Positions 27,925 to 64,000 of a stretch of DNA of 64,000 bases are shown piece after piece. The DNA comes from Thunnus thynnus (lineage: Eukaryota). The stretch is taken from contig NC_089527.1 of the NCBI RefSeq assembly GCF_963924715.1, positions 28,250,551 to 28,314,550 on the forward strand. The letters run 5' to 3'. Position numbers and translations under genes: made by a program. Under the pieces are notes generated by a model. The model made no database searches and was not told the DNA's origin. It worked only from the letters and a program-made list of their open reading frames with translations. Position 1 is the stretch's first letter. Every line of letters begins with the position of its first letter.

Positions 27925-27930
27925 GTGAGA

Positions 27931-41845: not shown

Positions 41846-41948
41846 GCGGGCTACTGGGAGTTAACAACAGAACTGGGGCAATTCATGAATATCAACGTAG
41901 ACCTCTTTGCCAACGTGTTCCTGAAAAACAAGGGCATCTGTTCTCTAG
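41846..41948 (+). CDS. parp4: PARP4 exon: C-terminal MVP-interaction region
   Basis: AGYWELTTELGQFMNINVDLFANVFLKNKGICSLG matches human DGFWKLTPELGLILNLNTNGLHSFLKQKGIQSLG. Confidence 0.9.
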
Positions 41949-42375
41949 GTGAGCATTTCCTCAACCTGTTTCAGGCCTACAGAGTGGAAATAGCTTTGTT
42001 ATTTCTGATCAAGTTGAGTAATTCTAACTTCTTGTTGGGAGTAGAGAATTAGGATGAAGCAGTGATAACAGAAATATTCACATCATTTGCTCAAGTAAAA
42101 CTACCATAATGGAAAATTGCTCAATTACAATTTAGATTTAACATTTTACTTAAAAGCAAAAGACTGTAAGCTTTAAAAGGCCCTGAAAACCTATTTTCTC
42201 ATTCAACTTCTTATCATGATCTACGGGTTCCTACATGAGCACAGCATTTTCTGCTCAAAGAGGTCTGTGGCCTGCCTTTAAAAACTGATACAGATATCTC
42301 AGCCAAAGTCTGAGCTTTGGTTCTCACTAGTTCCAACCAATGTTAAAGACATGCATAAATGTGTATGTGGTCTAG

Positions 42376-42508
42376 GTTTGAGAGCCCATGCTGACATCCT
42401 GAGGCTGGTGGCGACTCTTCTGGTTCTGCAGCTGATGAGGGTGGAGAAGCTGGAGGAAGGAAAACTTCTCCGCACACTTTTCTGCCTGAATGACTCCTCA
42501 CAGCCCAG
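42376..42508 (+). CDS. parp4: PARP4 exon: C-terminal region
   Basis: (G)LRAHADILRLVATLLVLQLMRVEKLEEGKLLRTLFCLNDSSQP matches human VKGRECLLDLIATMLVLQFIRTRLEKEGIVFKSLMKMDDPSIS. Confidence 0.9.
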
Positions 42509-42995
42509 GTCAGTCCACAACAACATGAATAGAGTGAAATTAATTTAAAATGATTAACTTGTTTGCTATTTGTAGAGACACATCAACCGAGTCTAAACTT
42601 GGCACCTAATGAAACTAAAATACAAGTTCAAAACAAGACATGAAGCCTGACTCATGTTAGGTTCAAGTAGAATCACATGTGGGTTACAAAATACAACAGA
42701 TTTAAAACATCATTCAAAAATACAACATAACAAGAAATTCAGAATCCAGCAAAAAAAGTTAGAAGAGGAACTAATCTATACAAGTATCAGCACTTTAGTT
42801 AAACATGACCTTGAATTGCCCAATGCCCTTTAAGGTGCTACTTATAATTTAACTTGCCTTGTTTAACCTAATTTACTAATTTGTGAAAGTATCTTAATTT
42901 ATACTAAGTTTCTTGTCTTAATTATTTTGTGAGCCTAGGTATCACTATTCCCTGAGTGGCTTACTCTTTTGTTAATGACTGACTTTTTCTTTTAG

Positions 42996-43215
42996 GCCTG
43001 AGCGGTGGGAGAAAGTGAAAAGGGCGGTGGACTGGGTATGCTGGGCTGACCAGCAGTACCCGTGTGTCTACAGCCGGTTGGAGTTTGGTTTGAGCTGGGA
43101 ATCCTCCACCCGTCAGCTGCTAGGCTATGAAAGTCTCCTTCCCTTCTCACCTCTCAGTGGTCTGAACCTGCAGGGGACCGCAGCGCCTCTGCTAGTCCAC
43201 AAAGCAGGCCAATAA
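42996..43215 (+). CDS. parp4: PARP4 terminal coding exon with stop codon TAA at 43213-43215
   Basis: (R)PERWEKVKRAVDWVCWADQQYPCVYSRLEFGLSWESSTRQLLGYESLLPFSPLSGLNLQGTAAPLLVHKAGQ* matches human RNIPWAFEAIKQASEWVRRTEGQYPSICPRLELGNDWDSATKQLLGLQPISTVSPLHRVLHYSQG*. There are candidate poly(A) signals AATAAA at about 43557 and about 43737. Confidence 0.9.
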
Positions 43216-43556
43216 TACTGAGGGAGCATGAAGAGAAGATAGTGTCAAAGAAATTGAAGCCTTTTTGAGGGGATGAGATTATCTTTTAGATTTATTTGTA
43301 CATGCATATGCACATATTTCTTTGCCTTATTTAAAGCATTTTGAACCCTCTGTCAGTGTGTTTAAATGCACATCAGTAAGCAGGATATAGTCAGCTTTAT
43401 GCAGTAACGTGATTTCTGAAACAAGTAACCTGTTTTCCTTAATTGGGGTTGTGGATTTGAGAAACCAGATTTCTCCAGCTAGATTTCTCATGGAGAGTTT
43501 CTGTACGGTATATGGGTATCTAGAGTTCTAATTGTCTTTTTACATAAGCACATGCA

Positions 43557-43562
43557 TAATAA
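43557..43562 (+). promoter_or_regulatory. parp4: Candidate PARP4 polyadenylation signal AATAAA
   Basis: catgcataataaagcctt lies about 340 nt after the stop. It is the first canonical hexamer in the 3' flank. Another is at about 43737. Confidence 0.35.
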
Positions 43563-46500
43563 AGCCTTCAGAAACGGAAAGCATAACTGTATGTGCATTT
43601 CCATCCATCTGTTTTACGAGCATTTTCAATTTGAGCAAAAAAAAAAAAGCATGTGAGTGGAAACACTGAAAATCTCATCATTGGCTGATGTAGAAAAGTT
43701 GATGTGTCCATATAAACAAAATGCAACAAAGTGCAAATAAAACAGACTTAGCGAATAAATCAAGTCACATACTGTAAATAAGGTATGAAACATATTTACA
43801 GGGAATATGTATGGAATAGTCTATAGGTGGTGTGACGGCCTTCTGCTGTCAGCTCTATACATTGTGTTATGCTTTCATCATTGTGGTGCAATCTATTCTG
43901 TTTAATTAGAGCTGGGCAATGCTGTAGTGTCACCCATCAGCTGGTGAGGGATTTCCCTCCTTGTCATGGCCTCCAGACTACCTATTTGTATTCTACGTCT
44001 TCAGCTGGTCTTCTCCTCCTTGTCACTGGCATTAACCATCAATCTCAAGCTTGCACGGACAATTGTCTAAACTGATAAATGTCACTCAGTGCAAACACCT
44101 GGGGTGGCTGTGATTTGATCTGAGCAGCATCTTTGTTGTATTATTAACTCAGTTATCCTGTGATAGTTAACCCTGCTGTTGGCTTCAGGCTTGTGTGAAA
44201 TTTGTTGTACGGTTAACTCATTGAGGCACTCGGTTAGCGGCTCTGGGACTGGGCAGTAGGTTTTAGATTGTTTTGTTATTTTCTTACATTTGTTAGCCCA
44301 TGCTCATGCACCACACCTAGTAGCCCGTCTGTCTATTCTGAACACCAGGCTTAAGGGGTGGTTGTTTGTGTTGTACTTCTGTTTTTATAGGTAAGAATAA
44401 TGAAGTCAGACAGGTATTGTTTTGTTTTGTTAACCTGGTTTTCGCATCAGTGAGTTAGTGGGGATCTGTTGGAATAGGAAGTGAAATTTTGTTTTATTTG
44501 TTTCTTTGTTTTGGGTCCACCCGCAGCCCTTTCTTTTGTTGCTTGCCTCAGTTATTTAATCACACTGAGTTTTTTTTTGATTATTTGGTGTTAATGTTTC
44601 AGTTGTAAGTCTGCAAATTCTTTTATTGTGACCGTAAACAATAAACAGTAGTGCCTGCCTGACAACATCAGTGTTTTGTTGCTTCCCTAAGTCTTAATTC
44701 TTTCACTTCTGTAACAGGTGGTAAGTTACTCACATAATGTTAGATCTGCAAAATCACTTTCTGCCACCCAGTTGGCATGTTTTAGCATATACTGCTAGTT
44801 GTGTTTACATGAAGCAACACTGTGAACAATGTATAATGGTTTCTGCCTTAGATAACCGGATACTCCCTGCTAATGTGGACAAGGCACTGGCAGAAGGCTG
44901 TCCTCTACCTCTGACCGAGGTATCGATCACCAGCTGTTGTTGAATCACTCTAGTCAGTAATGCATGACAGCCAAATTACAAAAAAATGTGTGGGTAAAAA
45001 TAGGTGTTGGAGGTTTGAAAGTACTCCAAGTTGACCCTTTAATAGGATATCTCTGGAGGAGGCCCACTCTGCCAGTTGAGGGCGCTCGCCCGGTTTCATA
45101 GGGTGACGTCAATGCCCTGACCCTTACATTTTTTGCCAGTTCAATAGATGTAATAAACCTTTCAATCAATTATGTTTCTTATAGATTCTACACTGAAATT
45201 ATACCTCTCTCACAGGTGCATCAGGTTAATTTCAATTAACAGATCTAGACCTGTCCAAAACTGTTAATCAATAAATATTGCATGTTTATTCTTAGCAATT
45301 CCCATTATAAATTTTCAGTATAAATTAATTTAGATCTCATGTCAGCCATATCTCAGGGGGGGGCGTCTTTCTTACCTTACAGGGACAACCAGAAGACCTC
45401 GCAGATGAGCACAAGCCAGGAACTTTGGTTGGAGTGTATAAAAATACAAACCAGTTTTATTTGGTTTTTACAAAACTGAGTATTACAAAATGTAAAAAGT
45501 AAAATACAAAACTTGAATGCAAAAGTTAAAAAAGAGACAAACCCTCTTTAGGATTTAAAGGGGTCAAAAAGGCCATAGAAGCAAAAAAGAGCAACAAAGG
45601 CCAAAATGCAGAAAAAGCCCCAAGACCTCTTTTATATCATTCATCTTAAAGCATCTACATCTCAAATCTATATATGGTCACCAACCAGAACATCATCAAA
45701 TATTTTCAAGACTTCACGGTCACAGGTCAAGGATGCAGAGTGTCTGTGTCAGGTGCAGACACAGCTTGCTTTGCAGGCCACCAGATTCCTGCTGATCTAA
45801 GCAGGAGTGTTAACGTGCACTTGCACAAAAGTGTAGTTACAATTCAGCTCAACTGACAAAATTTTCCATCATGTATTAGTTAATTGTCAATTTTCATTGA
45901 GTCTTTGCAGAGGATTATTTTAGAGGTAGGTTTGGTTTACTATGAACTATGACTACAAATTACAAGCACAGATAGCACAGATAATATCTGTGCTAATGCC
46001 TATCTTATTGCACACAATAGGTCTTTTAGCACATGATTTTATATTCTGTACAATTATTGTACAATAAACTGTTAATGGGAGCCCATTCATGAATTGGCTG
46101 CACACAAATTGTTTCAAACATCCAGTTTCAAACAAAAGAAACATTGCTTTCATTTATCCCTAAACACAACCACAATGTAAAGCAATGTTTTTGTCTTGTG
46201 ACCCCTTTCAAATGAAGCAACGTCTACTTGTTAGACTAGGTTGACTACTTCAACCAAAGAGCAATTTGTTTTTCTTGTTTTATTATAAAATCCAGGAATT
46301 AACAAGACAAAAGCAAAGATTAAGACCAATAACCAGAATTTATAACCAGTCTTATATGGGTTCAGTGTTCAATTGCAGAAACCCTCAGGGAGCCAGGAAA
46401 AATGCTCCCTAGAAATTGTCTTTACTTACTTTCTCCGTCACGCTGAAGAGAAAACAAACTGGTTGATCTCCTGTTGAGAACCACTTAAGCCTGCTGTACA

Positions 46501-47528: not shown

Positions 47529-47598
47529 ATGGAAGATGTCTATGTCAATGATGAACCTAAGAAACAAGTTGACTCAGGACCTTCTACAAATCAGACAG
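47529..47598 (+). CDS. C-type lectin (CD209/CLEC4-like, type II membrane) copy 1, exon 1: cytoplasmic tail
   Basis: MEDVYVNDEPKKQVDSGPSTNQT(G). The donor is acag|GTaaat. Confidence 0.75.
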
Positions 47599-47712
47599 GT
47601 AAATTCAGTCAGACAGAGAAGCTGACAGATTGAGCTGTGAATAGTATGCTTTTAATCTGTCATTAGTCCTGTTTTATAATTGATTGGATTCACTGGTCTT
47701 TTCTCTGTTCAG

Positions 47713-47811
47713 GTTTGAGTAGTTCAGAGAAGAGATTTCATGGAGCTGTTCTCTGTCTGGGGCTGCTGACTGTTTTCCTGCTGGCTGGACTCATCGGCCT
47801 CAGTGTCTACT
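47713..47811 (+). CDS. CLEC copy 1 exon 2: transmembrane segment
   Basis: (G)LSSSEKRFHGAVLCLGLLTVFLLAGLIGLSVY; this is a hydrophobic signal-anchor. The acceptor is ctgttcag| and the donor is tact|GTgagt. Confidence 0.8.
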
Positions 47812-48209
47812 GTGAGTCTGGTTTTCATAAATTAACATCAGAGTGAACCTGTTATTTTCAAGAACGTTATTCTACTTTGAAAGATTAACATGTTTTACCA
47901 AAATATTTATTTGACACCCTGGCTTGTCTGTGTTTATCCTCTTTCTTGACTTTTTTCAACCCTTTCCTTTTCTTTCTACTGATGACAGCTGCACAGATTT
48001 CATTCAGTGAGTTTCACTTTAGCCACTGCGTGGAGGTATTTCATAGACTGTATAAGCATACAGTTTGACTTGATTGATGAACATCTTTTATAATTGTGGA
48101 GGAAAACTAAGAAATGTTTTTGATTTGACTCAAAAACAGAAACTAGTTAGTATCAGTATTGATACTTAAGGTATTTTGTGTTTAAGAAACGTATCATGAT
48201 ATATTTCAG

Positions 48210-48347
48210 ACCTTGACTTGGTACGTGGTTTAGCTGAAGAACTCTCCACTATCAAAGCAAATCTGACTGAAGAGAGAGACCTGCTGAATGCCAGCCTCAC
48301 TGAAATAACTGAAGAGCTACACTGGCTTCGGATTTTGTCTGCACAGG
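48210..48347 (+). CDS. CLEC copy 1 exon 3: coiled-coil neck
   Basis: (Y)LDLVRGLAEELSTIKANLTEERDLLNASLTEITEELHWLRILSAQ has heptad-like periodicity typical of a DC-SIGN/CD23 neck. It is in frame with ORF 48218..48478. Confidence 0.75.
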
Positions 48348-49620
48348 GTGAGTCATTGTCTGTGTGGGCACTGAACAGCTGTTTCTTAACACGAAGGTCA
48401 GGACCTGCCACAGCATCACGTATCAAACCCATGATCAGAAAACATGCTCAAATGATACTTATATCCAACACTCTGTAAACTATATTTACTGTCAGTTTGC
48501 CTTGTCCCAGTAACTTAATTGCAACCTTTCAAATTATTCAGGCTTAAAGCACTTATCCCCCTCAGAAATCTAAAGAGTCCTTCCTAAGTCCTGTAAAGAG
48601 GAAGTGACTTTAGTATCACAAGCTGTAACATAACAAAAATAACAGTTTTAGGGACCAAAAGATTAAATAATAGTAAAAATAATAGTATTCATGCAGTTTA
48701 CAGTGAGAGGGAAATATCCGATTATGCTAAGCTAACCACCATCATTTGGTCATTTTGTCAAATATTGGCATAAAATTATAATTTGAAGTTTAATGTGTTT
48801 TTTCTTTTGATTTAAAAAAATGTGAAATTTATAGTGTCAGGACAGATGTGTCAAAAGAATTGCATATGACTTCTTTTACTCTTTCAACGTGTCAGATATT
48901 AGTAAGTTAACGTTAGGCTTGTTCATTCAGCAAGGTTACGCAACAGTTTCACCTGGCAGTTAGTAGGCATAAATCTGGTAACAACTCATCTCTACTTAAC
49001 AACTAGTTTGTGTGGTTCAACCAGTTTTAATTTAGTGATTCATAAATCTGCACTTAGTAAAAACTTACATTATAACCAATATGAACAAACAGGTGGTGCA
49101 TTCGGCTCCTGAAGTCTCAGTCCAAATGTTATGTTTTGAATTGGGCCTAAATTTCTGATAAAAATAAATGTTGTGACTTTGTCTATGTGTAGCTACATTA
49201 CCAGTCGTATGCAGCAGTGACGTCACTGCTAATGTCTTCCCCGTTGAATGTATATAAATATGAACGTCATGACAGCTCCGCAAAAGTGAAGCCAAAATAT
49301 CTCGATCGCCCCTGTGGCTGGCTGCAGTATAGGTCATAAATCCCACCCCCTCCATGTATAGAGATGGGACATGAGCCAAACTAAAAAATCAAGTAGCCTA
49401 CATGTCAAATAAACTTTTCCCAAAGATGGTTTCTGTCATGTTAGGTAGTTTTTATCACGCTCATTTTTCTGATAAGTTTGTTTTTAATTAGTTATTTCAC
49501 TATTTAAAAACAGGGTGTGATGTCATGATTGACAGCTGTGACAGCCACTCTCAAACCTTTGTCAGGCGGTGGAATGGCTGAGGGGGCATGTCCCATGGGC
49601 TGTCATCCCACTGCCCAACT

Positions 49621-50532
49621 ATAGACTGTAAAAAAAATATGGACGTAGCCATCATGGAGTCACCCATTGGTTTGTGGACTGCTGTTTTGAAGTCTTGTAT
49701 TTAGCGATTTGACCGTCACCATCCTGGATTTGACCGTCGCCATCTTTGCCCATTGATGTATTATAAGAGCTGGATAGGGCTCTGTCGCTCAACTTTGCAG
49801 CCAATTTTGCACAGTGGTCACTTGCAGAATGGCAGCAAAAATATCCCCCTGCAGCCCAAAAAGCATTTTCCCCATAGACAACCATTGTAAAATATACGTC
49901 TGTAAAACTGTTGACAGGACACCTTGGACTGCAAACAAGGTCAATTATGACTCTTTCTATTATGATTTTTTGATCCATGGAGGTTTTTTTATTTGTAAAA
50001 CTTTACTCGAGCCGAGAAAAGCGGTAAATATCCGTAATGTTATCACAATGTAAAGTCTATGGACCAAGCAGGAACTCGTGGGCGAGGCTAGCAAGGGAAA
50101 TACCACTGCGCATATTCAGCTAGCTGCACAATACGGAAACAAACCCAGAAGCTAGAAACTTTTTTGGCATATGCGCCAGCTGGGCAATTCTTATTGGACT
50201 GAATTGGTGCCATTTTTGGTCCAGCAGCTCTTATAATGCATCCAAGTTAATGGTTTTAGGCCTGTTTTTCACTAGTGGAAATTAACATTAGCATTATCAC
50301 TGTTAACCATAGATTGTAAATGCACCGTGCTAACCAATTGAGCAGCTAACGTTATGGTCAGCTCCACCCTCTTGTCCAAATATGGTCACTTCTGGCTCCA
50401 AAAATCAAACATGGCGATGGTGAAATCCAAGATGACAATGGTGAAATTGCTAAACTCGAGGATTCAAAACTGCAGTGCACAAACCAGTGGGTGACGTTAC
50501 AGTGACTACGTCCATATTTTTTACAGTCTATG
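49621..50532. mobile_element. Long-TIR non-autonomous DNA element (~910 bp) inside a CLEC copy 1 intron
   Basis: The left terminus ATAGACTGTAAAAAAAATATGGACGTAG... (49621-) pairs with the right terminus ...CTACGTCCATATTTTTTACAGTCTATG (-50532). The subterminal arms remain similar inward for about 130 bp (GTCACCCATTGGTTTGTGGACTGCTGTTTTGAAG vs GTCACCCACTGGTTTGTGCACTGCAGTTTTGAAT). A related terminus is at 10865. Confidence 0.6.
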
Positions 50533-50839
50533 TTTAAGACTCTTTTTATATTGCCTTCAATTGTTCTTATGGGTGTTGTGAAATAATAAGTAACTACTAA
50601 TTTGTCCTAGTATTGGACTTGTATCTGTGAGGAATCATTAGATGAAGCATTAGTCTGGGTTTGATGACACAATTTTATCCTGCTCTTGGTTAAGGCTGTT
50701 TGGATTCATCCTCCATTGTATAAATTATGCACATTAGGGGTTCATGCACTGAAAACAGTTTTCGAAACCAGATATTTACAAGTAGAAGGACATAAACTGC
50801 GTCTACTCTTTAATGTCTCTTGTTTAACATATTTTACAG

Positions 50840-50982
50840 AGAAAACTTGTTCTGCAGGATGGAGTACGTTCAGTTTTACTTGTTATCTCATCTCCACTAA
50901 ATCTGGTTCTTGGGAAAAAGGCAGAAAAGACTGCAGAGCCAGAGGAGCAGATCTGGTGGTCATAGACAGTTATGAAGAACAG
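50840..50982 (+). CDS. CLEC copy 1 exon 4: CTLD part 1
   Basis: EKTCSAGWSTFSFTCYLISTKSGSWEKGRKDCRARGADLVVIDSYEEQ has the canonical CTLD start C-x-x-GW...CY.FS....W..A...C...GA.LV.I.S.EEQ. The donor is followed by a (GT)n repeat. Confidence 0.9.
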
Positions 50983-50987
50983 GTACT

Positions 50988-50988
50988 C

Positions 50989-51029
<41 letters not shown>

Positions 51030-51036
51030 ATTATGT
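50988..51036. repeat. (GT)n microsatellite directly after the CLEC copy 1 CTLD exon 4 donor
   Basis: gaacag|gtactctgcgtgtgtgtgtgtgtgtgtgtgtgtgtg. Confidence 0.9.
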
Positions 51037-51331
51037 TGACTGTCAACCCTGGACTGTACATAAGACATGCATGTCCTGGAAGAGGGTTCCCTCCTTTGCT
51101 GCTCTTTATTTAGGTTTCTCATGTTTTTTTTCTCACCCATCAGTGTTTAGCTTGACTTGCCCTCTAACCCTACTGATTGCTTTATGCACAAATTCCAAAA
51201 AAAAAATGTTTTTCAACTTTTTTAAACGAATCCTTGTCAGAATTGTTCATATTAATCCCTGTAAATTACCTTTATAATATGGTTGAAACTAAATATAAAT
51301 ACAGTGGCTTTCTTTCCTTCACATTGAGCAG

Positions 51332-51435
51332 GAATTCCTCATTAATATTACAAAGCAAGCAAGTTGGATTGGTTTGAGTGACAGAGAAAAAGAGGGAACC
51401 TGGAAATGGACAGATGGAACTCCACTGACTCAGGC
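51332..51435 (+). CDS. CLEC copy 1 exon 5: CTLD part 2
   Basis: EFLINITKQASWIGLSDREKEGTWKWTDGTPLTQ has the WIGL.D...EG.W.W.DG motif. The donor is caggc|GTaagg. Confidence 0.85.
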
Positions 51436-51999
51436 GTAAGGCAGAAATTTTATTCACCTTTTTTTTGAATATAGAGAACATATACAATGATTGCTGTATG
51501 TTCACTGAAGTAGTTTTTTTTTTTATGACAGTCTACATAACAGCCGCTGTTCAGAAATAATCATATTGACTTGTCAGAGTGGAGCCAAATAACCATTTAC
51601 TGTCAACAAAATGGTTAATTTATTTAGTTAACTGACCATCGCTCAGTATAGCATGAACAAAGTGCTGGTATTCGGAGCTAACCAGCCATGAGCAGCTGCT
51701 GTCAGGCTCTCCATGACTGTTAAGCTTTGACAGTCACTAGAAGCACATTCATTGCCCTTTGTAAAAGTTTCTGTGTGGTACCGGTGTTGTAGCTGAGATA
51801 GTGGCTCTACTATGTGAGTATTACTATATCCAGTACGTGTGTGTGTTTTTTTGTTTTTTTTTATGTCATGTTAAGGGAGAGGCCAAAGAATTCAGCTGAA
51901 CTGAATTTTCAAATATAAGCAGACACCATTTGTCAATTAGCTCCACACCTATTTTTGTTTGTTTATTTGTTTTGGTTTTATTGGTTTGTTTGTTTGTAT

Positions 52000-52520
52000 T
52001 ATTATTACTTTAGTATAAAATGTGTTACTATATTATATTTATATTATCTGTCACTATGATAATTATTATTCATTATTATCTATATTATTTAATATTTATT
52101 ATCAATGATGCAACAACAATCATGATGCTTGTCATTGCCATTTTCACTTATCATTCTCATTGTTATAGAAATAGTTATCATTAAAGCTGTTACACATGCC
52201 ATTATTGACATCAGGAGAAGGATGATGTATATTAATATTATTATATAGACAGCTATTATTAATATTATTACACATGTTTATAGAATGATGATTATGATGT
52301 TGATTACTGTGGATAATTTATGTAATAATGGTCAATTTTTGCATAGATTATTATTAGGATGAAAAGATGATACTATTATTATTATTATTATTATTGTCAT
52401 TATTATACATATTAATAGGATGATGATGACAACAATATTATTTATCTGTACTATTTTTAGAATTATTATTATTATTATTATTATTGGCATTCATATTAAT
52501 TTTGATATCATTTTAAGAAT
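52000..52520. repeat. AT-rich low-complexity region / (ATT)n microsatellites
   Basis: attattattattattattgtcattatta, ggatgatgatgac. Confidence 0.8.
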
Positions 52521-52829
52521 AAAGAAACATGTAGTATTTGGTAACAGGCCGGATTTCAGTCTGTTAAGTTCAGTTCAGTTACTGAACTCTGTTCATTTCT
52601 ACCGTTTTACAAGTGTGAGAATACACAGACACCTTCAGGTTCAGACCATACACAGACATACAATTAACAATTACACTGAACCTCCTCACTCAACAACCTA
52701 CTCTATTCACCTACTTCTTCTCTTTTCTTTCTATTCTCACTGTCTCGCTCTCTCGCTATAAATTATTTTTTTATTTATCATTATTGTTATTTTATTTTTA
52801 TTAACTTGTTTACATACTCATTTATCTAT

Positions 52830-54500
52830 CTTTTGTTATGTTTTATTCCGTTATGTTTGAGCCAACCATATCTGAATGATGGGACCACCTCGGACTGAGC
52901 CCTGGTGACTGGGGGAGGGGGACTTGGGGGACTGGACTGGTTTGGGACAGCTTGGAGTCAGAGGACCTGATCCCCACTAAGCCCTTCTCCAAGTAGAAAG
53001 TTGCTCCTCAGACCCAGTTAAACAGACCCCTCCTGTAGATGTGGGGCTGTTCTAAAGGGGATCTGACCTACAACAGGCCAGCCACCTCTTACAGGAGTGG
53101 TGGCAGCCTAAAGACAAAGAAAGCAGGGAAGAGGAGAAGCGGAAAAGAGCTAAAAAATTAAGAATAAAAAAAGAATAAAACAAGCAAATAAACAAAATTG
53201 AAAAGAAAAGAGACAAAGAAAGGGAAAATAAATACATCAAAAATTCTGTCCTGACCTGACCTGCCCCAGATCCACCAGATGGTGCCTGCCCTCTAAGATT
53301 GTGGCTGTGTTATTTTTTTTCTTTTTCTTTCTTGGGGTTAATACGGTCTCTTCCTTTTTGTTCTCTCTACCTTTTTTATCTTTCACACAGAAAACCCACC
53401 CACTCACACAAACACACACCTACCTACACCTACCTAAGTCTAGTTCTCCCACTTGTCTTCTGCTGTCATATGTGTCTTCATGTTGGCCACTTGTATTGCA
53501 CTATGAACAAAAAAAATCTAAGCAGACACAAATAAGCTGATTTTGAGCAGGAAAAAACAGTTTTACACACAATGTGTACTGTTTGAGCATCATATGCCAA
53601 TATAAACCTATGTGTACAGTGTATAAAAATTAGTTCCACGGTAAAACCGCGTTTGTTTTGTTATGTATTTTGGCTAGTTGGGAAGTGGAAAATACAACAA
53701 ACAGAAAACATATTAATTAACCTTTTAAAGTTGTTATGGCGAACTTGGCCAGCAGTTGCCTATTTACACTCTCAGCATACATTGAGCAGTAGAATTCATT
53801 TGGAGTTGTGTTTCTGACAAATGTTACTGTCAGACTCGGGGAAGCAGGAGTGGACCCAAACGCAGAAGCCGGAATGCAGATATGATGAAAAACTCCTTTA
53901 ATTGTGGATGGTCATGGACAGGACAAACAGAGCTGAACAGAACTTGCAGAAGAAACAACACAAAACGATCCAACAAAGACTGAACAGAAAACCAGAACTT
54001 AAAAAAACTGAACTAACAAGGAGATGAGGTGCAGGTGGGGAGATGGGTGGAGAACTCGAGAGGGGAATGAACATACAGGGAGCTGATTGGCTGAGGACAC
54101 ACAGGGAGCGGGGCAGGGCTGACGAGGCTAACACAGGGCAGGTGTGGGGAAGACAGCAGGGCAGGGCTAACGAGTCCAAATGCAGGGCAGGTGTGGAGGA
54201 GTACATGAACACACAAGGGAAACAGAACAAAAACCCAGAAAACAAACTCAATGCCATCTACACTAACCCAGCCAAAACCAACTACAAACACTAACCCAAG
54301 CACACAACCCAACAAACTAATGATGCAGTCCTCTAAAACCCACCACCCAAATCATACAAGAAAACCCTTATGAACCGAGGGACTAAACAGACGTGCAAAA
54401 CCAGGAGACCCCACAGAACACAACATAAGACCAAAAAAACACCCAAAGTCCAGGCAAGATGTGACAGTTACTCCCAAAAAAAAAAATCAAAGTGTTTGAC
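52830..54500. repeat. Unclassified interspersed repeat-like region in the last CLEC copy 1 intron
   Basis: The sequence is low-complexity and purine-rich. It contains segments such as ggaagcaggagtggacccaaacgcagaagccggaatgcag and repeated gggcagggctaacgag blocks. It has no coding potential. The only ORFs are low-complexity ones on both strands. Confidence 0.35.
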
Positions 54501-54686
54501 TTGTTTCCTGCTGTGTTATTGTCCACAGGACAACATTGGGTGTCAGCATGGAAGGTTACAAAGTTTTACAAACCTATATTGTCTCAAAATAATCACAGTG
54601 TGTTGGCACATAACCAAAAACTACAGAAGCTGTGTTTATGACTGTGTTGAGATTGACAGTCATGATTCTCATTCTCATTAACTTAG

Positions 54687-54858
54687 GTATTGGGCGACAA
54701 ACCAGCCTGATAGTGGAGGTGAAGATATGCAGTGGGGAGAAGAAGACTGTGTGACAGTCATACCTCAGTTGCCAACTACATACAGCTGGAACGATCTTTC
54801 GTGTGATGCTCCTAGGCAGTGGATCTGTGAGAAAATCCTTAGCATTGGCGCAAAATGA
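54687..54858 (+). CDS. CLEC copy 1 exon 6: CTLD part 3 with stop codon
   Basis: (A)YWATNQPDSGGEDMQWGEEDCVTVIPQLPTTYSWNDLSCDAPRQWICEKILSIGAK* has the EDCV...WND..C.....WICE motif. The total CDS is 726 nt, giving 241 aa, and every exon junction is phase-consistent. AATAAA lies about 10 nt downstream. Confidence 0.85.
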
Positions 54859-54974
54859 GTTTTGAAATAAATCATATGTTATAAATATACTTTTACAATT
54901 TAAACTACTAGTGCAGTTCCCGTTCAAAACGTGCCTATTGGGAACGGGCTGATTGCTTATTGTTTCTCGAGAGC

Positions 54975-54980
54975 CACATA

Positions 54981-55035
<55 letters not shown>

Positions 55036-55036
55036 G
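54975..55036. repeat. (AT)n / (ATATATAC)n microsatellite
   Basis: atatatatatatatatatacatatatatatatatatat. Confidence 0.9.
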
Positions 55037-56309
55037 TATCAAGTGACAAATGTATTAATAAAAATGATAAGGAACTAATAAATTAAATGGTTTAAATCCA
55101 GACAGAAACTCCAGTGAGACTAAACTGAAGCTGAACTGTAGAAGCACTTTTCATTTGTTTATTCCAAGTTTATTAATATTAAACATGTCGTGTGTCCAAA
55201 TTGCACCATGTAACCATTGTTTGCTTTGTATTTCTCTTTATGCACAGTAAACCTATTCACATTGAACTCTGCCAGCTTCAGATGTATTTTTTGAGTCTTT
55301 CTCTTATAAGTTTTTAGTTGAATGCTAAGTTGTGGGTGACCTGAAGATTTATTGGCCCAACTGAAGATTTCCCACGACATAACCATATAATGTAACATTA
55401 AAAAGGAAGTGGTTCATTTGAAACATCTGCAGCGATCTCTCCCTCAGTGTGTAGAAAGTTTTGGCTTTTGGCCTTGCGGTTGACAAGCTGTGTATGTATG
55501 CATGTGTGTGTGTGTTTGTGCAGATAGTGGTCTGACCAAAGTTCCTGTTGTTTCTGTGGCTGAAGATGACAAGTCGATATAAAGAGTCAAGATGAGGTGC
55601 TGACGAGTCATGTCTCCACAAATTAGACTGTTGTTTGTCATATCAATGTCTGTCTCCATTACAATGTCCTGATGTCAACTCCATTTTTGCAAATATTAAC
55701 AGGCTATGTTTGCATTATTTATTTGTTTCATTGGGTATTATACAGTAGTTTATTGCACTGCATATAGTTTTCTAATGTTAATGTATTGTTGTAATAATTA
55801 TAATTGTTCTTACTGTATTAAACTTTTTTATCTTGATTGACCGTGTTGTTGTAGTTTGTAGATGTACTTTCTGTTTCCTCCCTTAGCTTGTTTTTAAAAG
55901 GCTTTCTCATATAATACACCCATGTTGGGCCTTGGCTACAAGTTTGGCTATCAGCAATAATTAATGATTATCAAAGATAATTATTGATTATTAAAATTAA
56001 TCGAAATTATTAATAAGAATGAATAATAACAGGGCATCACCCTGGAGTCAGGGAAAAAGAAGCCAATTCAGTCTCAAAATTTACTAAGTTATCAATTTTT
56101 AACTCTGATCAATAATTAACTTGATATCTATAACCAAAATTATCATAATAATAGCTAGTTAAAGTATAAGGATTTTAGAGTTCTTTGGCAAAAGGTTGGC
56201 AAAACTCATTCTTGTGCAAAATTAAACAGACAGCATGTATATCCAAAAGCATTTATTTAACAAAAAGGTAAAAGAGAAAAACACACAATATTAATCTAGT
56301 TTAATTTAC

Positions 56310-56343
56310 CTATATACAAGTGTATGTGTGTGTGTGTGTCTAT

Positions 56344-56374
<31 letters not shown>

Positions 56375-56388
56375 GGGTGGGGGACAAT
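56310..56388. repeat. (GT)n followed by a poly-G tract of at least 20 nt
   Basis: gtgtgtgtgtgtctatgtgtgtgtgtgtgtgggggggggggggggggggggtggggg. Confidence 0.9.
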
Positions 56389-57500
56389 GGCAAGATGGCT
56401 GAAGTCACTTGGTGACTGAGCACATGGTATGGAGACAACATGACCGACAGAGACAACTGCAGAGATAAAAGGCCAGACCATGTGGTGTCTTGAACCACAT
56501 GTGCTGTCTAAAGCAAAGTGCAAAGCTAGGTTTTAAACCTCTTAACTGTGGTTCTCTGTTTAAGGCCAATTGGTGTAGGCTAAAGGTGCCAGGTTAGGAA
56601 GAGGTTAGTTGCATGCGAGGCCTAGTTACTGGATGTAACGTGTGTTAAGCATGCTAACATTAACTTAGCAGTGTGGCTATGCAATAACCTGACCGTCACA
56701 GCAAGGACATCACAACAATAGTTCAATGAATAACCTTAGCCAAATAAATACATGTACAGTAAATTGATTGAGTTAAACATTCTTACTTAGCCATGCTATG
56801 CTTCACTATATGTTGCTAGGTTATGCCCAGTTGTTACCAAGTCCATGGAGAAAGAGACCTGGGTCCATGGGGTTTCCCACTTAGGTGCCAACAACCACAG
56901 ACTGTTTCTTTAGGACTCCTGTTGTTTCTTAGAGTCTTGAAACATGTGGTCGGCCAGTGAGACCTAACACCCACCATATAATAACAGCTACATGAGTCTC
57001 ATGTTTTACCTGAAAGACTCGTGTTTAATGCTTTTATTTATCGTTTGTGATGTTAAAACATCACAGAAATAAAAAGTTTGTGTCCTGGTATTAGCACTGT
57101 CTCTGCTGCTGGCTGCTGACAGTGCTGTCAGCTGGAGTGTCAATCAGACTGGATGGTGCGTGTCTGTTTAAACAGGAGTTTAGCCGACTTCACTGCATTT
57201 AACATCGGAGCTGAGAGCATCAGAGCTCAGAGCAGGAAACACAGTCACTCTGCGTCACGCTACTGCTGTCCTCTGATTCCATCATCAGCCAATGAAGAAC
57301 CTCCGATACTCAGTCGGCCGACCAGTGGTGTAACTTCATCACTCACTCACTCACTCACTCAACCGTGGTTATAGGGCTGGTCTGTGGCTGGTCCAGCCAA
57401 ACACTGTGACAGAGAGACAGTGTCATCTTCTACAGTACATGTACAGCAGCCAGTGCTACACAGCTGTCCTTTTAGAAAATACCGTAGTTGCTTTTCAACA

Positions 57501-57546
57501 ATGGAAGAAATCTATGTTGATACCAAACATTCAACAATTCAGACAG
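57501..57546 (+). pseudogene. CLEC copy 2 exon 1: cytoplasmic tail; the copy as a whole looks disabled
   Basis: MEEIYVDTKHSTIQT(G) is paralogous to the copy 1 and copy 3 first exons. Confidence 0.6.
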
Positions 57547-57584
57547 GTAAGAATATTCAGTCAGTCATACTTTTCTCTGTTCAG

Positions 57585-57693
57585 GTCCGAAGACTTCAGA
57601 GAGGAGATTTCATGGAGCTGTTCTTGTCTTGGGGCTTCTTGGGGCTGCTGAGTGTTTTCCTGCTGGCTGGACTCATCGGCCTCGACGTCCAAT
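57585..57693 (+). pseudogene. CLEC copy 2 exon 2: TM exon carrying a 7-bp tandem duplication (CTTGGGG) that frameshifts the TM segment
   Basis: The exon is 109 nt here against 102 nt in copy 3 and 99 nt in copy 1. In the spliced frame the stretch LLSVFLLAGLIGL becomes AAECFPAGWTHRP. The intact TM reading is found only in the unspliced frame (ORF 57384..57707). Confidence 0.6.
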
Positions 57694-59040
57694 GTGAGTC
57701 TGGTTAACATTCAGAAGTTTAAGTCAGACTGAACTCATGATTATAGGAGCTGATTATTCTACTCTGAAAGATGATGTCCTGACTTTGTTCTGGTTTGTGT
57801 TGGTCTTAATTACTGTTTAAATTTGTTAAAGTGTCATAAAAATACAACATTGCTGTTTGTTTGGACAGCAGCATATGGAGATGCATATGTAGAAGGAGGC
57901 AATTACTCCTTAGGTGTGCTGCTTACTGGGAGAAGCACAGTTTTTTGATTGCCATTTAGAGGCTAATCTTTAAGCCTTTTTAAGTTTTCATGCAAGTTAT
58001 TGGTGTAAGTGTGTGTATAGCAAAGGCTGTATTGGTACATGGTGGTAAATAAATACATGAAAACTAGTTTTTACGGAAGATCAATATGTTGCATACAATA
58101 AGAAAATTATGATTGTAGTGGGAAGGTTAACATTTTTTCTTACATTTAATATATGTTATAATTAAGGAAATAGCTAAGATATTTTTATTTTATTTAAAAC
58201 AAAGAATTAGTGATTTACAGTATACTTTTATTGAAGAAGGATGTTTTCTCTTCCACTGGTCCAACGTTACTCAGAAGTACTTCAGACAATCTCTGGTTGT
58301 CTTATTCAAAATAAAGCACTCACAAGTCCAATGTAATGTAAGTGGTGGTATTATGTGAATTTTTGTAGATTAAAACTTTACTTTCATCTGGTGGTGTGGA
58401 AGCTGAGCTTCGTGAGATCCTAAGGCTTTGTAGTATGGTTTAAAGCATGTTGTGACTGGAGACACAAAGTAACTGTGCTGAGAATGGTTTCAAAGCATTT
58501 TATACATTCAAAGGGAGGCATCTGCTGGCCAAAACCTTGGTATTGATCTCATGATCAAATACTGAGCCAATCTAGCTGTCAAAGAAAGTGAGTGGCATAT
58601 TTGAGATTTTGATAAACCCATATGTCTTTATTTCTGTGGTGTCATCCAGTAATAATATCCTGCCTCAAAATCTGACATCAGGACACAGAAAGAATGAGCT
58701 GAAATCAACACATAAAGTTTGTTCCATTATCTTCAAATAAAAACTGATGCCATCAAAATAATTTGAAAGATGCGATAATCACAAAAATTGTATTCATACC
58801 ACAGAACTGCAGCTAAAAATCAGCACCAGAAATGCTCCATAGTTGGTAGAATATCAACAATTCTTTGGTTTTATTTTTTATAATCATCTTTATTTCATTT
58901 CATGCTTTCCACCATGAGGCTTTGCTTACAATCTATTACCAACATAGATATACAATAAGACCTTGATGTGGAACATAATATAGGCCTATCCTATCCTAGG
59001 ATGGTGCCTCGTCCTAACACCTTCAACGTAAGACGCCCAT

Positions 59041-59041
59041 A

Positions 59042-59108
<67 letters not shown>
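59041..59108. repeat. (CA)~34 microsatellite
   Basis: acacacacacacacacacacacac... Confidence 0.95.
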
Positions 59109-59109
<1 letters not shown>

Positions 59110-59695
59110 TACATGCATAACCCTTATTCTATGTCCTGTGTTCTCTACTGGAGTCCCCCCTCCCCCTCCCAGTCATGCCATAAATTCTTTTTAATCTCAT
59201 AGGGCTTCATCTGTGTACTTCCAAATTTCATTGAATTGCTTCAAAGCACAAAATTGGTTCTGTGCTTTCTGTGCTAATTCTGTTCTTAATATGCATCTTT
59301 TTAACCCTCATACTTTGGAAACAGACAGACTTGATTCTTGTCTAATTTCTAATGTTGTGTGTTACAGAGAAAACATCCTCCCTTGAGTTTTAGTGCCTAA
59401 AACTTTTACACAGTACTGTAACTGATGACCAGAACACTATGGGGGTGTTTATTTATACAGGAGGCTCCTTTGTTGCTATTTGATGACTGCAAATTTATAT
59501 TTAGGAAAAATACTACAGTGAACCTGCAGCCCTGTTCAATTCGCTGCTCTATAGCTCAAAACTATACTAAGGCACATCATGCAAGATAGAAGAAATTCCA
59601 TAAATGTGATGTTTGTGAAGAAATATTATTTGTGTGAAGGACTGTGTTCATGTCAGAGATTAAGTATCACGATTCTCGTGTTCACTGACCTGTAG

Positions 59696-59858
59696 GTACT
59701 GGGAGACAAATCAGCCTGATAATAAAGGTGGAGATCCAAAGTGGGTTGAAGAGGACTGTGCACATATGAGGTCTGGCAAGAAAACTAATCTAAACTGGAA
59801 TGATCGGTCATGTGATGCTTCTCTGCGGTGGATCTGTGAGAAAAATGCTGGTGTATAA
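59696..59858 (+). pseudogene. CLEC copy 2 terminal CTLD exon (intact on its own); the neck and CTLD exons 1-2 were not found between 57.7 and 59.7 kb
   Basis: (.)YWETNQPDNKGGDPKWVEEDCAHMRSGKKTNLNWNDRSCDASLRWICEKNAGV*. The acceptor is cctgtag|. Confidence 0.6.
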
Positions 59859-62800
59859 TATGTAAAAATGCTTTTTCAAAGCAAACTATGATTTTGCAAA
59901 AGGCAAATCAGTTTGTATGTGTGTGAATTTAAAACTTTTCTCTGCTGTGCTGATGACCTTTTGCTTCTGTTCTGCCTTTTCAAAGAGATTTCTATAAATT
60001 AGATATTTACAGCTTTTGCCAGAAGAGCTTCATTAACCAATTTCCAATGTTTCAAACAACTAAAAGAAGCAGACAGATAAAACAAATCAAACCTCTGCAA
60101 AATGCAACAGATTCATAAAAACCTTTATTTTGATTAATGTCTTAGCTAAAGATTTCATGATAGTTGAAAGTTGCAAAAAGCCTGATTGAGACCATTTCTT
60201 ATGACATCCCTCATATCATAATTAAACAATGTAATATAGATTTTGTGTAATTATGTCTTACTATATCATCAAAAGACACTTTCCTGAAAATAATTTTTAA
60301 ATGAAGTGTGTTCAGCAGCTGACAGATCTCTTTAGCAGAGGCCATCAGTGTTTGTGAATTTTATTTGATAATTAGTGGTTTCACTCAGGAAACACTTGCT
60401 GTTGTGAGAAAATTATCAAATTATTTTAGATGAAATGTAAACCAAAACTATTCAACAGATGAGTCAATATAAAGTCAGTCAATTACAACATATAAGCACT
60501 GTACTGGAGTCAGACGTTTATGATGTCCTTTGTAATGCTGGTAGCTGATACTGGTTGTGCCTTTTATGCAATTATGAAAATAATTAAAATCTTTTTAAAA
60601 ATTGAATTGAAAAGAAGTTAATGATATGATTTAAAGGTAGGTTTGAGGATTGCTGTGACTCTATAATGATACCCTTGAGTTGGATCACCCAAATCAACAG
60701 ACTGAATCTCAGGTGCTTTGAAAACCTTACAGCAGATAGTTGGTTTAAACAGTATACAGGTTATTATATATTCATTTTTAATAGTTGTTAAATCTATCAT
60801 ATGTCAATTTTAAATATTAATTTTTGTCCCAGATTAATTTTTAAAAATAAGTTAAATCATATTCAAAGTAAGGAGTCAGGCTCTTTATGTGGTTGCACAC
60901 GTGTGCATATGAAAGAGAAAAGAGATAGAGAGCAAGTGCACATACACAACTGTTTATTTTGTCCGTCCGACAAAATAAAACCTACCAAATATAAAACCAT
61001 ATCTACACACTTGGGGGAAAGAGTCCTCGCTGGAGAAGTATGAGGGTAAAGTCACTCTAGGAGGATCTGCAGTGGTTCCGTTATGTGGGTCTGTGTGCAG
61101 GCCTGGTCAACTGCCTTATTTTTTTTCCTACCCGCATTCTGACCCGTCCCTACTGTGCCTCTGATTGGCTCTGATGCTGATATTCTTCCCCTAATCCTAA
61201 CTATCTCACTCCTTATGCCTAGGCATAGGCACCCCATTAGATGGCCATCTAATGGGGGGCGCCAACATAATGAGCCAATTTCACTAAGCGCCAGATCGTA
61301 GCCTCTGCTCTGTCAGTACCACACTTCCAGCCATTCGTTCATACCTAAGCTTATTTGCTAGTTACCTGTTGCTTGTACTCAGTCTGAACTTTATTCCCTT
61401 TTCCCTGCAGGTCCGTCTGCTCTGCCCTCTGGCCCCTGTCTCCTGGACCTCCCCTGTCTCCTGGACCTCGCCTCATCTTGTCTGCTCCATTCTCCCAATC
61501 TGGACCCACAAAGCTCCATACTCCACCTTCGAGATCCGCGCCTGGCTCTGCTGTGAACCATTCCCTGGGTCTCACCTGGCTAACTTAACCCTGCCATTCT
61601 GAAAATAAAACATTGTTTCAGTCCAACCGTGTCTCTGGCCTGTCTGTGTTCACACTATGGTTCACCTGCTTAGCAACCATGTGACAGATTATATTTATGT
61701 ATTTCTTATTTTACCAGTCCGTCAGTGCATTTCTCTCAGTTTCACCAGCCTTCTTGACACTACTGCAACCTCCACAACCTGCTGGCAGGTGAGTGCACAA
61801 CCAGGATCACTTTATAGCTTATAGACATTTATGTTCATTTATGTTCATGCTGCTGTGTTATTATTTGAAAGTATGAAACTATTTCAAATTATTATACCTA
61901 ATGTTGTGTATTGCTGTGATGCTGCTTTACTTTATTAAAATATAACTTTCATGTTTTCTGCATTTAAATGAGGGATAAGGAATATTCAGTGTGAATATGG
62001 AGTGATCTAATTTCCATCCATCTCTGTTTGTGATTGAATGTTTTGATTGTAGGGAATGGTCTCACCTCGGCCCCAGGCTTCATGGAGATAACCAGTGAAT
62101 GGGCTTTCCTGGGCTACAGACTCTCCACCTGTAACACTTAACAAGCTCAGATGCTGCCATTACTTCTAGAAATCTAGAGAAAGTTAGCAGCATCTTTGTT
62201 TCTTGTCATTTAGACTGCTGTAATTCCTTATAAGTTGGTCTTAGTCAGTCTTCCATATCCTGAGTGCAACTTATTTAAAACACTGCTGCTCCTCCGTCAC
62301 TCCTGTGTTGGCCTTTCTTCACTAGTTTCCTGTTCAGCATAGAATTAATGACAACATCTCACTGTTTCTCCTTATATTTCTGACTTTTAAACCTTCCAAC
62401 TGCTCTGGGTCTTTGAAGTCTTCTGATTTAAACCCATAAGTGCCACCATAAACACTGTTTTTTCCATTACACTGTGATATTAGTATGTTATATGGGTTGC
62501 TAGGTGATACTGCTACATCAGTGTTGCTTGTTCTTACACAGCTGATTTTTTACATTGGTGACAGTGGTGTCATGGACACAAGTACCACAAGGCGTTGCCT
62601 TAACTTATCTACTTCCTCAATAATACCCCTGTTGCCACTGTTCTGTGGAACAAATGTATTAGAGAGCAGTTTACAGACATGTAAAACATAAACATTCTGT
62701 GTAAGAATGACAAAAAACAACAGCCATTATTTGTATTATGAAAAACAATATGAATATTTTCTCTACGCGCAAGAAATGAAAATCTCCTTCCAATGAGCTT

Positions 62801-63022
62801 ACTACCAAACAGCATCCATATGTTGATTTCTGTCTAAAAAGTAAAACAAGAGACTCATTAAGTTTTTGTTCCTGTTTCGAGTAATGATCACACATTGTAT
62901 CTATGTTCAGCATATTTGTGTGAGAAACTGAACCCAACAAGAGTTCATCATATGCTATACATGCGTTGTAGCTTGTGCTTCAGAGCCGACCCTTTAGAAA
63001 ATAGTTGGCATCCTTAAGAGCG

Positions 63023-63074
63023 ATGGAGGAAATTTATGCAAATGTTGACTCAATAACTTCAACAAAACAGACAG
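63023..63074 (+). CDS. CLEC copy 3 exon 1: cytoplasmic tail (the gene continues past the window end)
   Basis: MEEIYANVDSITSTKQT(G). The donor is acag|GTaaaa. Confidence 0.7.
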
Positions 63075-63159
63075 GTAAAAATGTTGCACAAAGATCTCAA
63101 TTATCATCTGTTCTTTTTACTGTTGTATCATTGACTGTATTGACTGTTTCTCTGTTCAG

Positions 63160-63261
63160 GTCCGGGGAGCTCACAGAGGAGATTTCATGGAGCTGTTCTT
63201 GTCTTTCTGGGGCTGCTGAGTGTTTTCCTGCTGGCTGGACTCATCGGCCTCGGCGTCTACT
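63160..63261 (+). CDS. CLEC copy 3 exon 2: transmembrane segment
   Basis: (G)PGSSQRRFHGAVLVFLGLLSVFLLAGLIGLGVY has an intact hydrophobic anchor. The ~160-bp downstream intron is about 98% identical to the copy 2 intron at 57694-57850. Confidence 0.75.
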
Positions 63262-64000
63262 GTGAGTCTGGTTAACATTCAGAAGTTTAAGTCAGACTGA
63301 ACTCATGATTATACGAGCTGATTATTCTACTCTGAAAGATGATGTCCTGACTTTGTTCTGGTTTGATTGGTCTTAATTACTGTTTAAATTTGTTAAAGTG
63401 TCATAAAAATACAACATTGACTACAATATTTACAATTTACAATTTTTAAATAGAGATAAAAAGATTTTCCTGAGGAATGTGACTTTTTTTCAAATATTTT
63501 AACAACAATTCACATCTTAGAGAGAAGGAACAATTCTTTTCTCTCCAAGATGTGAATTGAGTGATTGTACAATTTGTATTTTGTCATTGTTTTATCATTG
63601 TACATATTGCCATAAATGTTTGTTGGCAAACTAATGAATGAATGAATGCTCCATAGTACTGTGGTAATAATAGAAAATGACCTACTGTGTGTCCGAGTTG
63701 CACCAGAGATAGAGAGAGAGATATTTAATAGACTGATTTAAAATCATGAGCGTCAGCTGTCGTCATGGGGCAAAATTAGGAAACAATTTGACTTGTGTTG
63801 ATATTGTGTAATATTACATGATGTGAATTTATAAGGTATTTGCTGTTTCACAGACATGTCATGACATTTCAAAGACATGCCTCATTCAGGGTTGACAGGC
63901 TTGTCAGGGACAAGTGGGTTGAGTGGAAGAGAAATTTAGTTGCTCCACTGGACAAGTTAAAGTCATTTAAAAAACGTGTCTTCACGTTATGTGCAGTGTT

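Follow-up and report, generated by a model that had tools for sequence, protein, structure and literature searches.

A tandem array of lectin receptor genes downstream of PARP4

We analysed a stretch of 64,000 nucleotides of Thunnus thynnus DNA (NCBI RefSeq assembly GCF_963924715.1, contig NC_089527.1, positions 28,250,551 to 28,314,550 of the forward strand), hereafter called the window, in which positions are counted from the first letter. This region is very probably the PARP4-proximal end of a large tandem array of genes encoding group II, type II transmembrane C-type lectin receptors. The window has the composition of intron-rich vertebrate DNA (~38% GC). Three lectin gene starts were found on the + strand, 3' of PARP4, at 47529, 57501 and 63023 (copies 1, 2 and 3); they belong to one intact gene (copy 1), one decayed relic (copy 2) and a gene of which the window holds exons 1-2 (copy 3). 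A preliminary description, made from the letters of the window, had placed three tandem paralogous lectin genes after PARP4. The tandem, same-strand starts of CD209/CLEC4-like type II receptors were indeed found, but not three full genes, since copy 2 is an old pseudogene relic. A search with copy 1 returned 492 homologues in teleosts, named CD209-like or CLEC4-like.

The extent of the array is apparent in T. maccoyii, for which the sample comprised four loci on OU343201.1 that lie between 27.70 and 27.97 Mb and together make up 191 kb. These loci contained 11 transmembrane (TM) exons and 12 last exons, all on the + strand, and the array in this species covers at least 270 kb with at least 11 gene starts. 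A 28-kb T. maccoyii locus aligned to window 56551-63301 with 93-98% identity. The order of exons (cytoplasmic tail, TM segment, neck and three exons for the carbohydrate-recognition domain, CRD) was the same in copy 1 and in the T. maccoyii units, some paralogues having 2-4 repeated neck exons of ~47 aa each. Paralogous blocks of the T. maccoyii array were 94-98% identical over 2-7 kb; therefore, recent duplication or homogenisation is a property of the whole array. The "evidence of recent duplication" put forward in the preliminary description holds in this loose sense, and does not hold for the pair formed by copies 2 and 3. The array probably evolves by birth and death of its units, through unequal crossing-over, gene conversion and pseudogenisation.

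Gene models in the array merge exons of several units. For instance, the T. maccoyii model P0015 (L005 10001-74885) has 389 aa and four neck repeats, covers 65 kb and takes its exons from several units; it is likely a chimeric annotation.

Gene structure of copy 1

The exons of copy 1 were located as follows.

47529-54858, + strand: copy 1, whole gene, six exons, 241 aa
47529-47598, + strand: exon 1, start codon and cytoplasmic tail (MEDVYVNDEPKKQVDSGPSTNQT), identical to T. thynnus P0001
47713-47811, + strand: exon 2, TM signal-anchor, with AG/GT boundaries and identified by Kyte-Doolittle hydropathy
48210-48347, + strand: exon 3, 45-aa neck, aligning with the neck exons of tuna paralogues
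50840-50982, + strand: exon 4, first exon of the C-type lectin-like domain (CTLD) (EKTCSAGW...EEQ)
51332-51435, + strand: exon 5, second CTLD exon, with WIGL
54687-54858, + strand: exon 6, third CTLD exon, with QPD, WND, the last three cysteines and the stop codon

The six exons have GT-AG boundaries and consistent phases and join into an open reading frame (ORF) of 241 aa, of which residues 125-234 matched positions 3-107 of the 107 positions of Lectin_C (PF00059; E=6e-22, 78.9 bits, cutoff 22.6). The complete 241-aa model of the preliminary description is therefore borne out by the six-exon frame together with the full-domain match. Exon 6 is preceded by a repeat-rich intron of 3.25 kb (intron 5), and the copy-1-type units of T. 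maccoyii have the same long intron before their last exon. Four such units were seen in the T. maccoyii sample, all of them remnants whose last exon is interrupted by an identical in-frame stop (YW.MKQPDKGD*D), leaving copy 1 of the window as the sole intact unit of this type that we saw. The remnants lie in three of the loci.

L001 22788-25519: copy-1-type pseudogene unit
L005 51459-53276: copy-1-type pseudogene unit
L006 1366-1524: copy-1-type pseudogene unit
L006 27792-27950: copy-1-type pseudogene unit

The RefSeq protein of this gene in T. thynnus, P0001, is residue-for-residue identical to our model in exons 1-3, in the shared part of exon 4 and in exon 5. It also has 241 aa, with another structure: its exon 4 is longer by 56 codons at the 5' end, and it stops at a TAA just past exon 5. 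The equal length of the two models is coincidental, the 56 additional codons standing against a dropped last exon of 56 codons (window 50668-51438). In the window itself, the acceptor of this longer exon would have to be a non-AG one, while the six-exon model agrees with the consensus junction of the family, Q|(K/E)KTC. Because it matches this junction and restores the sugar-binding site, the six-exon model was preferred, and the RefSeq model probably misses the last lectin exon.

Two minor features were noted in the introns of copy 1. A (GT)n microsatellite (50990-51027) begins ~8 nt into the intron that follows exon 4. Intron 3 contains a pair of inverted repeats of 128 nt, 79% identical to each other (49621-49748 and 50406-50531), which could be the termini of a non-autonomous DNA transposon.

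Conserved residues and classification of copy 1

In an alignment of 50 homologues, C106, C134, C206, C224, C232, W162, G164 and L165 were invariant, and C117 and I163 nearly so; all of these residues are present in copy 1, which retained 29 of the 29 invariant columns. Its CTLD thus has the six cysteines of the long form and the WIGL motif. Ca2+ site 2 reads NQPD...GEEDC...SWND, where P192, E203/E204 and W219-N220-D221 are invariant columns. The QPD...WND motif of the Ca2+ site goes with specificity for Gal/GalNAc, while EPN is the mannose/fucose-type motif of DC-SIGN. Among the best 120 homologues, QPD was found in 91 and EPN in 14, and some members of the T. maccoyii array carry EPN. Judging from its QPD...WND motif, copy 1 would bind Gal/GalNAc-terminated glycans in a Ca2+-dependent manner.

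The TM segment of copy 1 follows a tail of 30 residues and reaches a Kyte-Doolittle maximum of 2.65 (19-residue window). The hydropathy maxima of copies 1 and 3 both begin at residues 30-35, as for a single signal-anchor after a cytoplasmic tail. The neck is encoded by one exon of 45 aa, rich in L, E and T. In the cytoplasmic tails of 50 teleost homologues, a Y-x-N motif was conserved (Y5 nearly invariant, N7 invariant), most often in the form EEIYxNV. The tail of copy 1 reads YVND at this place (47541-47549) and has lost the +3 Val. The Y-x-N motif is similar to an acidic-Tyr signalling or SH2-docking motif. Judging from these sequence features, copy 1 is structurally intact and probably functional, and its product would sit on leukocyte or endothelial membranes; the ligand, expression and signalling proposed here are predictions drawn from architecture and motifs.

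The closest single-domain (CRD-only) solved chains were almost all group II receptors, with E-values of 1e-24 to 1e-21; multi-CTLD receptors outscored them only through the summing of many domains. The ranking was CLEC4E (1e-24), CLEC4A (1e-23), CLEC4C (9e-23), then DC-SIGNR, CLEC4F, ASGR2 and CD209 (6e-21). "CD209/CLEC4-like", the label used in the preliminary description, is a fair family name for copy 1 on the basis of these sequence comparisons. The mammalian group II receptors (the CLEC4 family with Mincle, DCIR, BDCA-2 and CLEC4F; DC-SIGN/DC-SIGNR, ASGR1/2, MGL and CD23) are likewise type II proteins with a neck and a long-form, Ca2+-type CRD that is split, as in copy 1, over three exons. 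There is, however, no one-to-one orthology with any of them, the E-values of seven receptors falling within about three orders of magnitude.

We considered copy 1 as an orthologue of DC-SIGN and rejected this assignment. Copy 1 has QPD rather than EPN, and its score with CD209 was weaker than with CLEC4E, CLEC4A or CLEC4C. The neck of DC-SIGN consists of tandem 23-residue repeats and its tail carries LL or tri-acidic motifs, whereas copy 1 has a single neck exon and a Y-x-N tail. With ASGR and MGL (CLEC10A), copy 1 shares QPD...WND in its Ca2+ site, but its similarity to them is no greater than to mannose-type members, and its specificity is a predicted one. Among teleost genes annotated by NCBI as "CD209 antigen-like", "CLEC4E-like" or "CLEC4F-like" (e.g. 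Scomber scombrus P0006), the Scomber proteins are 64-71% identical to copy 1 over their full length and share its architecture; P0001 differs in that its model lacks the last CTLD exon and has a longer exon 4.

Copy 2 is a pseudogene relic

Only three of the six exons are left in copy 2.

57501-57546, + strand: copy 2 exon 1, 24 nt shorter than that of its subfamily (compare P0038 and P0015)
57585-57693, + strand: copy 2 TM exon, 109 nt
59696-59858, + strand: copy 2 last CTLD exon, orphaned, with QPD, WND and stop codon (found by tblastn, with splice site)

Copy 2 had been described as a gene with cytoplasmic, TM, neck and three CTLD exons, which is contradicted by the tblastn results. The neck and the first and second CTLD exons were not found in 57694-59695 when this interval was searched by tblastn (permissive E-value, word size 2) with copy 1 and two tuna paralogues as queries. 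The TM exon, which measures 102 nt in copy 3 and 99 nt in copy 1, has in copy 2 a 7-nt insertion that shifts the frame, so that it is split over two reading frames and its hydrophobic segment is destroyed (hydropathy maximum of 1.55 versus 2.65 and 2.78 in copies 1 and 3, respectively). When the CTLD exons were tested against PF00059, the last exon of copy 2 alone gave a partial match (positions 59-107, E=3.5e-5), as compared to the full-length match of copy 1. Copy 2 also matched none of the best 120 homologues retrieved with copy 1.

Comparison with T. maccoyii indicated how the exons were lost. In intact T. maccoyii units, the equivalent of window 58327-58860 is intron 3. The following match is at 59397, in the region of the last exon, which indicates that the two intervening CTLD exons were deleted. 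T. maccoyii L001 carries the same frameshifting insertion of 7 nt, and the decay therefore predates the split of the two species. From its sequence, copy 2 is a dead relic and not a gene, and it warrants a pseudogene flag in the annotation.

The frameshift moves the phase at the end of the TM exon from 1 to 2, which by chance fits the last CTLD exon and creates an open frame of 105 aa. This frame is without a membrane anchor and has one third of a lectin domain; it is probably meaningless and at risk of being annotated as a protein. A (CA)n-type microsatellite tract (58968-59120) occupies the site of the lost CTLD exons.

Copy 3 and the tract shared with copy 2

Copy 3 extends beyond the edge of the window, as the preliminary description had stated, and only its first two exons could be located.

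63023-63074, + strand: copy 3 exon 1 (MEEIYANVDSITSTKQT), identical to the N-terminus of T. thynnus P0075
63160-63261, + strand: copy 3 exon 2, intact TM exon, 102 nt

Its best counterpart was T. maccoyii L005 32119-34851, which is 98.1% identical to window 61269-64000, and the TM exon (hydropathy maximum given above) showed 100% amino acid identity to L005 34007-34108. In this counterpart, two neck exons lie 5.4 kb downstream of the TM exon and are followed by three CTLD exons. Copy 3 is thus probably the start of a further intact gene, as predicted from its two exons and this comparison.

Copies 2 and 3 share a tract of high similarity.

57572-57852, + strand: shared tract, copy 2 arm, TM exon (3' part) plus the initial 159 nt of the next intron
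63147-63419, + strand: shared tract, copy 3 arm, same parts

The similarity takes the form of direct repeats with a spacing of 5567-5568 nt, 57635-57797 being 96% identical to 63203-63365 and 57800-57852 being 100% identical to 63367-63419. Overall, 281 nt could be aligned, at 93.6% identity. In exon 1 and intron 1, the identity was 66.7%, with 55 gapped columns. It rose to 91.8% in the TM exon (5' part) and to 157/159 where the next intron begins, and no alignable similarity was found past the first 159 nt of this intron. The near identity noted earlier for introns of ~160 bp in copies 2 and 3 is therefore real, but concerns the first 159 nt of much longer introns and not whole introns: that of copy 3 has at least 739 nt inside the window, and in the closest T. 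maccoyii unit 5.4 kb separate the TM exon from the next one.

The preliminary description had offered two explanations for this tract, and of these the duplication of a unit fails, whereas gene conversion or recombination fits better. That copies 2 and 3 arose by a very recent duplication of a ~5.6-kb unit would be suggested by the constant spacing of the direct repeats and their identity of 96-100% over ~220 nt. We nevertheless consider it extremely unlikely, given that the similarity is confined to 281 nt, with large indels upstream and unalignable sequence downstream, that copy 2 is old (three exons gone, and a frameshift found also in T. maccoyii), and that five other array units are equally similar in the tract. 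Indeed, the tract of copy 3 was 99.1%, 98.2%, 97.7%, 97.7% and 96.8% identical to those of five other T. maccoyii units, as compared to 97.2% for copy 2; this tract is therefore a feature of the whole subfamily and is not private to copies 2 and 3. A discrete, recent gene conversion of ~160-280 nt from copy 2 into copy 3, or the reverse, would agree with the mosaic profile, in which identity rises sharply at the 3' end of the TM exon, and with the observation that, in the T. maccoyii unit following copy 2 (L001 10001), the intron is a different one starting at nt 46. This too appears improbable, since the unit at 34 kb of L005, the counterpart of copy 3, already has the tract at 99.1%, since the other units, at 97-98%, are as near as copy 2, and since the abrupt 3' end coincides with the lost downstream sequence of copy 2 rather than with a return to background divergence.

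The sequence comparisons point instead to both copies being members of one subfamily, whose array units are young or homogenised and of mosaic ancestry. Copy 3 joins the 5' end of one subfamily to the TM-intron segment of another, and recombination or conversion, as read from these alignments, was involved in the tract but is old and not specific to the pair of copies 2 and 3. We had also considered L001 10001 as the orthologue of copy 3, with a conversion private to one lineage; this was dropped, because L005 matches 61269-64000 at 98.1% with the same tract.

Alternative readings of the array

Several observations weigh against the region being the end of an array that starts with an intact gene. 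The omission of the last CTLD exon from P0001 means that the splicing of the 3.25-kb intron 5 is a prediction, and some doubt on copy 1 comes from T. maccoyii, where an in-frame stop makes a pseudogene of each copy-1-type unit that we saw. Most of copy 3 lies outside the window. Furthermore, orthology is blurred: window 56551-59561 was best matched by L001, and window 61269-64000 by a unit of L005 ~150 kb away. Best matches so far apart imply that the order of units differs between the two genomes, or that one assembly is misjoined. Relative to the locus collinear with 56551-59561, the L005 match (32119-34851, to be compared with L001 7749-10275) is situated ~150 kb upstream.

The first of these points could be taken to mean that copy 1 is a decaying or truncated gene, the product of which ends after the second CTLD exon as in the RefSeq model. 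The TAA at which P0001 terminates directly after exon 5, the length of intron 5 and its many repeats, and the pseudogenes of T. maccoyii all agree with this. Yet exon 6 (54687-54858) has an open frame in the correct phase with an AG before it, and it brings the conserved QPD, E, WND and three cysteines; the non-AG acceptor needed by P0001 and the fit of the six-exon model to the consensus junction argue in the same direction. We therefore regard a truncated copy 1 as rather unlikely. The difference in unit order raises the other question, whether the lectin copies are assembly artefacts, i.e. falsely duplicated or collapsed contigs. Arrays with units that are 94-98% identical are difficult to assemble, and one T. 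maccoyii gene model covers 65 kb and several units. However, the three copies in the window differ substantially from each other, the window contains zero Ns, and window 56551-63301 has a collinear counterpart, 93-98% identical, in the independent assembly of T. maccoyii. An artefact, which the preliminary description had named as an outcome that would undo its claim, is thus hardly credible.

The array that we favour resembles other tandem arrays of immune receptors shaped by birth and death or by concerted evolution, such as the C-type lectin genes of the mammalian natural killer (NK) complex, in its same-strand tandem units with interspersed pseudogenes, and in its 94-98% identical paralogous blocks and mosaic ancestry; it differs from the NK-complex genes in its lectin group (II as opposed to V) and in its lineage. 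It is ordinary for a fish genome, and the family is already annotated and of a known kind. A literature search returned general papers on teleost lectin receptors and none on the tuna array or on a PARP4-lectin linkage. For fish immunology, the array is a further case of group II C-type lectin receptors having expanded within a lineage. Its members include QPD and EPN types, and expansion of this kind is expected of pathogen-recognition families. Its relevance is small outside the corrected annotation.

PARP4 and its neighbourhood

The gene upstream of the lectins was mapped in part.

19843-43212, + strand: PARP4 (vault PARP), exons mapped in part only
19843-20007, + strand: BRCT-like segment of PARP4, weak Pfam match (E=0.017)
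27728-27925, 29074-29313 and 29705-29992, + strand: pieces of the PARP catalytic domain (Pfam)
31128-31373, + strand: VIT domain (Pfam)
33167-33511 and 34800-35153, + strand: vWA domain (Pfam)
38844-39953, + strand: large open exon of PARP4
within 41825-42049, 42282-42545 and 42979-43212, + strand: MVP-ID C-terminal exons, with homologues carrying PF26156

A Pfam search of exon-sized open frames, in which several per-exon matches remained under the Pfam cutoff, gave the order BRCT, PARP catalytic, VIT and vWA on the + strand. Pieces of the gene matched PARP4-named proteins of sturgeon, killifish, grouper and birds. The exons at 41.8-43.2 kb, which come next and encode the MVP-ID C-terminal domain, were 81-86% identical to proteins with the PF26156 PARP4_MVP-ID domain. 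The same order of exons was seen in halibut (L010). The position of PARP4 upstream of the lectins on the same strand, as given in the preliminary description, is confirmed by the domain order and the named matches. In many teleost annotations, the MVP-ID C-terminal domain is split off as a separate "PARP4-like" gene of 146-245 aa. In halibut L010, such a gene is located 4 kb past a PARP4 model of 1271 aa, and it is probably an annotation split and not a second gene.

The preliminary description had considered the neighbourhood worth comparing with other teleosts. In this comparison, a remnant of the adjacency was found in Pampus, whereas in halibut and pike no lectin exon was present within 10 kb downstream of the PARP4 stop. 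In Pampus, which also belongs to the Scombriformes, PARP4 C-terminal exons persist as remnants, one of which contains a stop codon; a lectin gene follows 3.5 kb downstream of them, and another lectin fragment precedes them. The remnants are collinear with window 39987-44686, without the exon at ~41.8 kb, and were found at the following positions.

L002 5506-6636 and 9281-9583: Pampus punctatissimus, compacted, stop-containing PARP4 C-terminal exons and 3' flank, between two lectin units

Among the genomes compared, a remnant of the PARP4 tail beside a lectin was seen only in Pampus, and it implies that the PARP4-lectin junction is older than Thunnus. For Scomber japonicus P0002, no PARP4 sequence was found within 10 kb upstream, where another lectin is located. 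In Goodea and Austrofundulus, the loci do not reach as far as the 3' end of PARP4.

With respect to the lectin array, PARP4 is no more than a flanking gene. The preliminary description had pointed out that this PARP family member is also implicated in host-virus conflict, and we considered a conserved immune neighbourhood in which PARP4 and the lectins are functionally linked. The short distance between them (4.3 kb from the end of the last PARP4 coding exon at ~43.2 kb to the first lectin ATG, on the same strand), the Pampus remnants next to a lectin gene and the rapid evolution of PARP4 in primates (PMC4038475) could be cited for such a link, but the findings in halibut, pike and Scomber japonicus speak against it and we judge it highly improbable. 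We give scarcely more credence to a scenario in which, in Scombriformes, the PARP4 tail was at some point duplicated along with the first lectin unit, and in which PARP4 of tuna lies at the edge of or inside the array of at least 270 kb. The latter position is suggested by T. maccoyii lectin units 45-185 kb upstream of the window-collinear segment. If this were true, PARP4 and the lectins, both rapidly evolving and immune-related, could be tied together in their regulation or recombination, for instance by chimeric transcripts or by PARP4 variation hitch-hiking with lectin haplotypes.

Repeats and traces of mobile elements

Pfam searches of long ORFs in introns, in intergenic DNA and at 4.9-7.1 kb yielded nothing except a weak remnant of DDE_3 (Tc1/mariner-type transposase; E=0.0019) at 14352-14555. 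Window 4939-7111 contains, on both strands, long overlapping ORFs of up to 272 aa with reverse transcriptase-like strings such as FLELANAFGVVPH, and its GC content is 47-48%. The three ORFs tested from this segment had no Pfam match, and the segment is probably a decayed retroelement. Long microsatellites of the (GT)n, (CA)n and (TA)n types are located at 50990-51027, 58968-59120 and 54976-55040, the first two being those mentioned above for copies 1 and 2.

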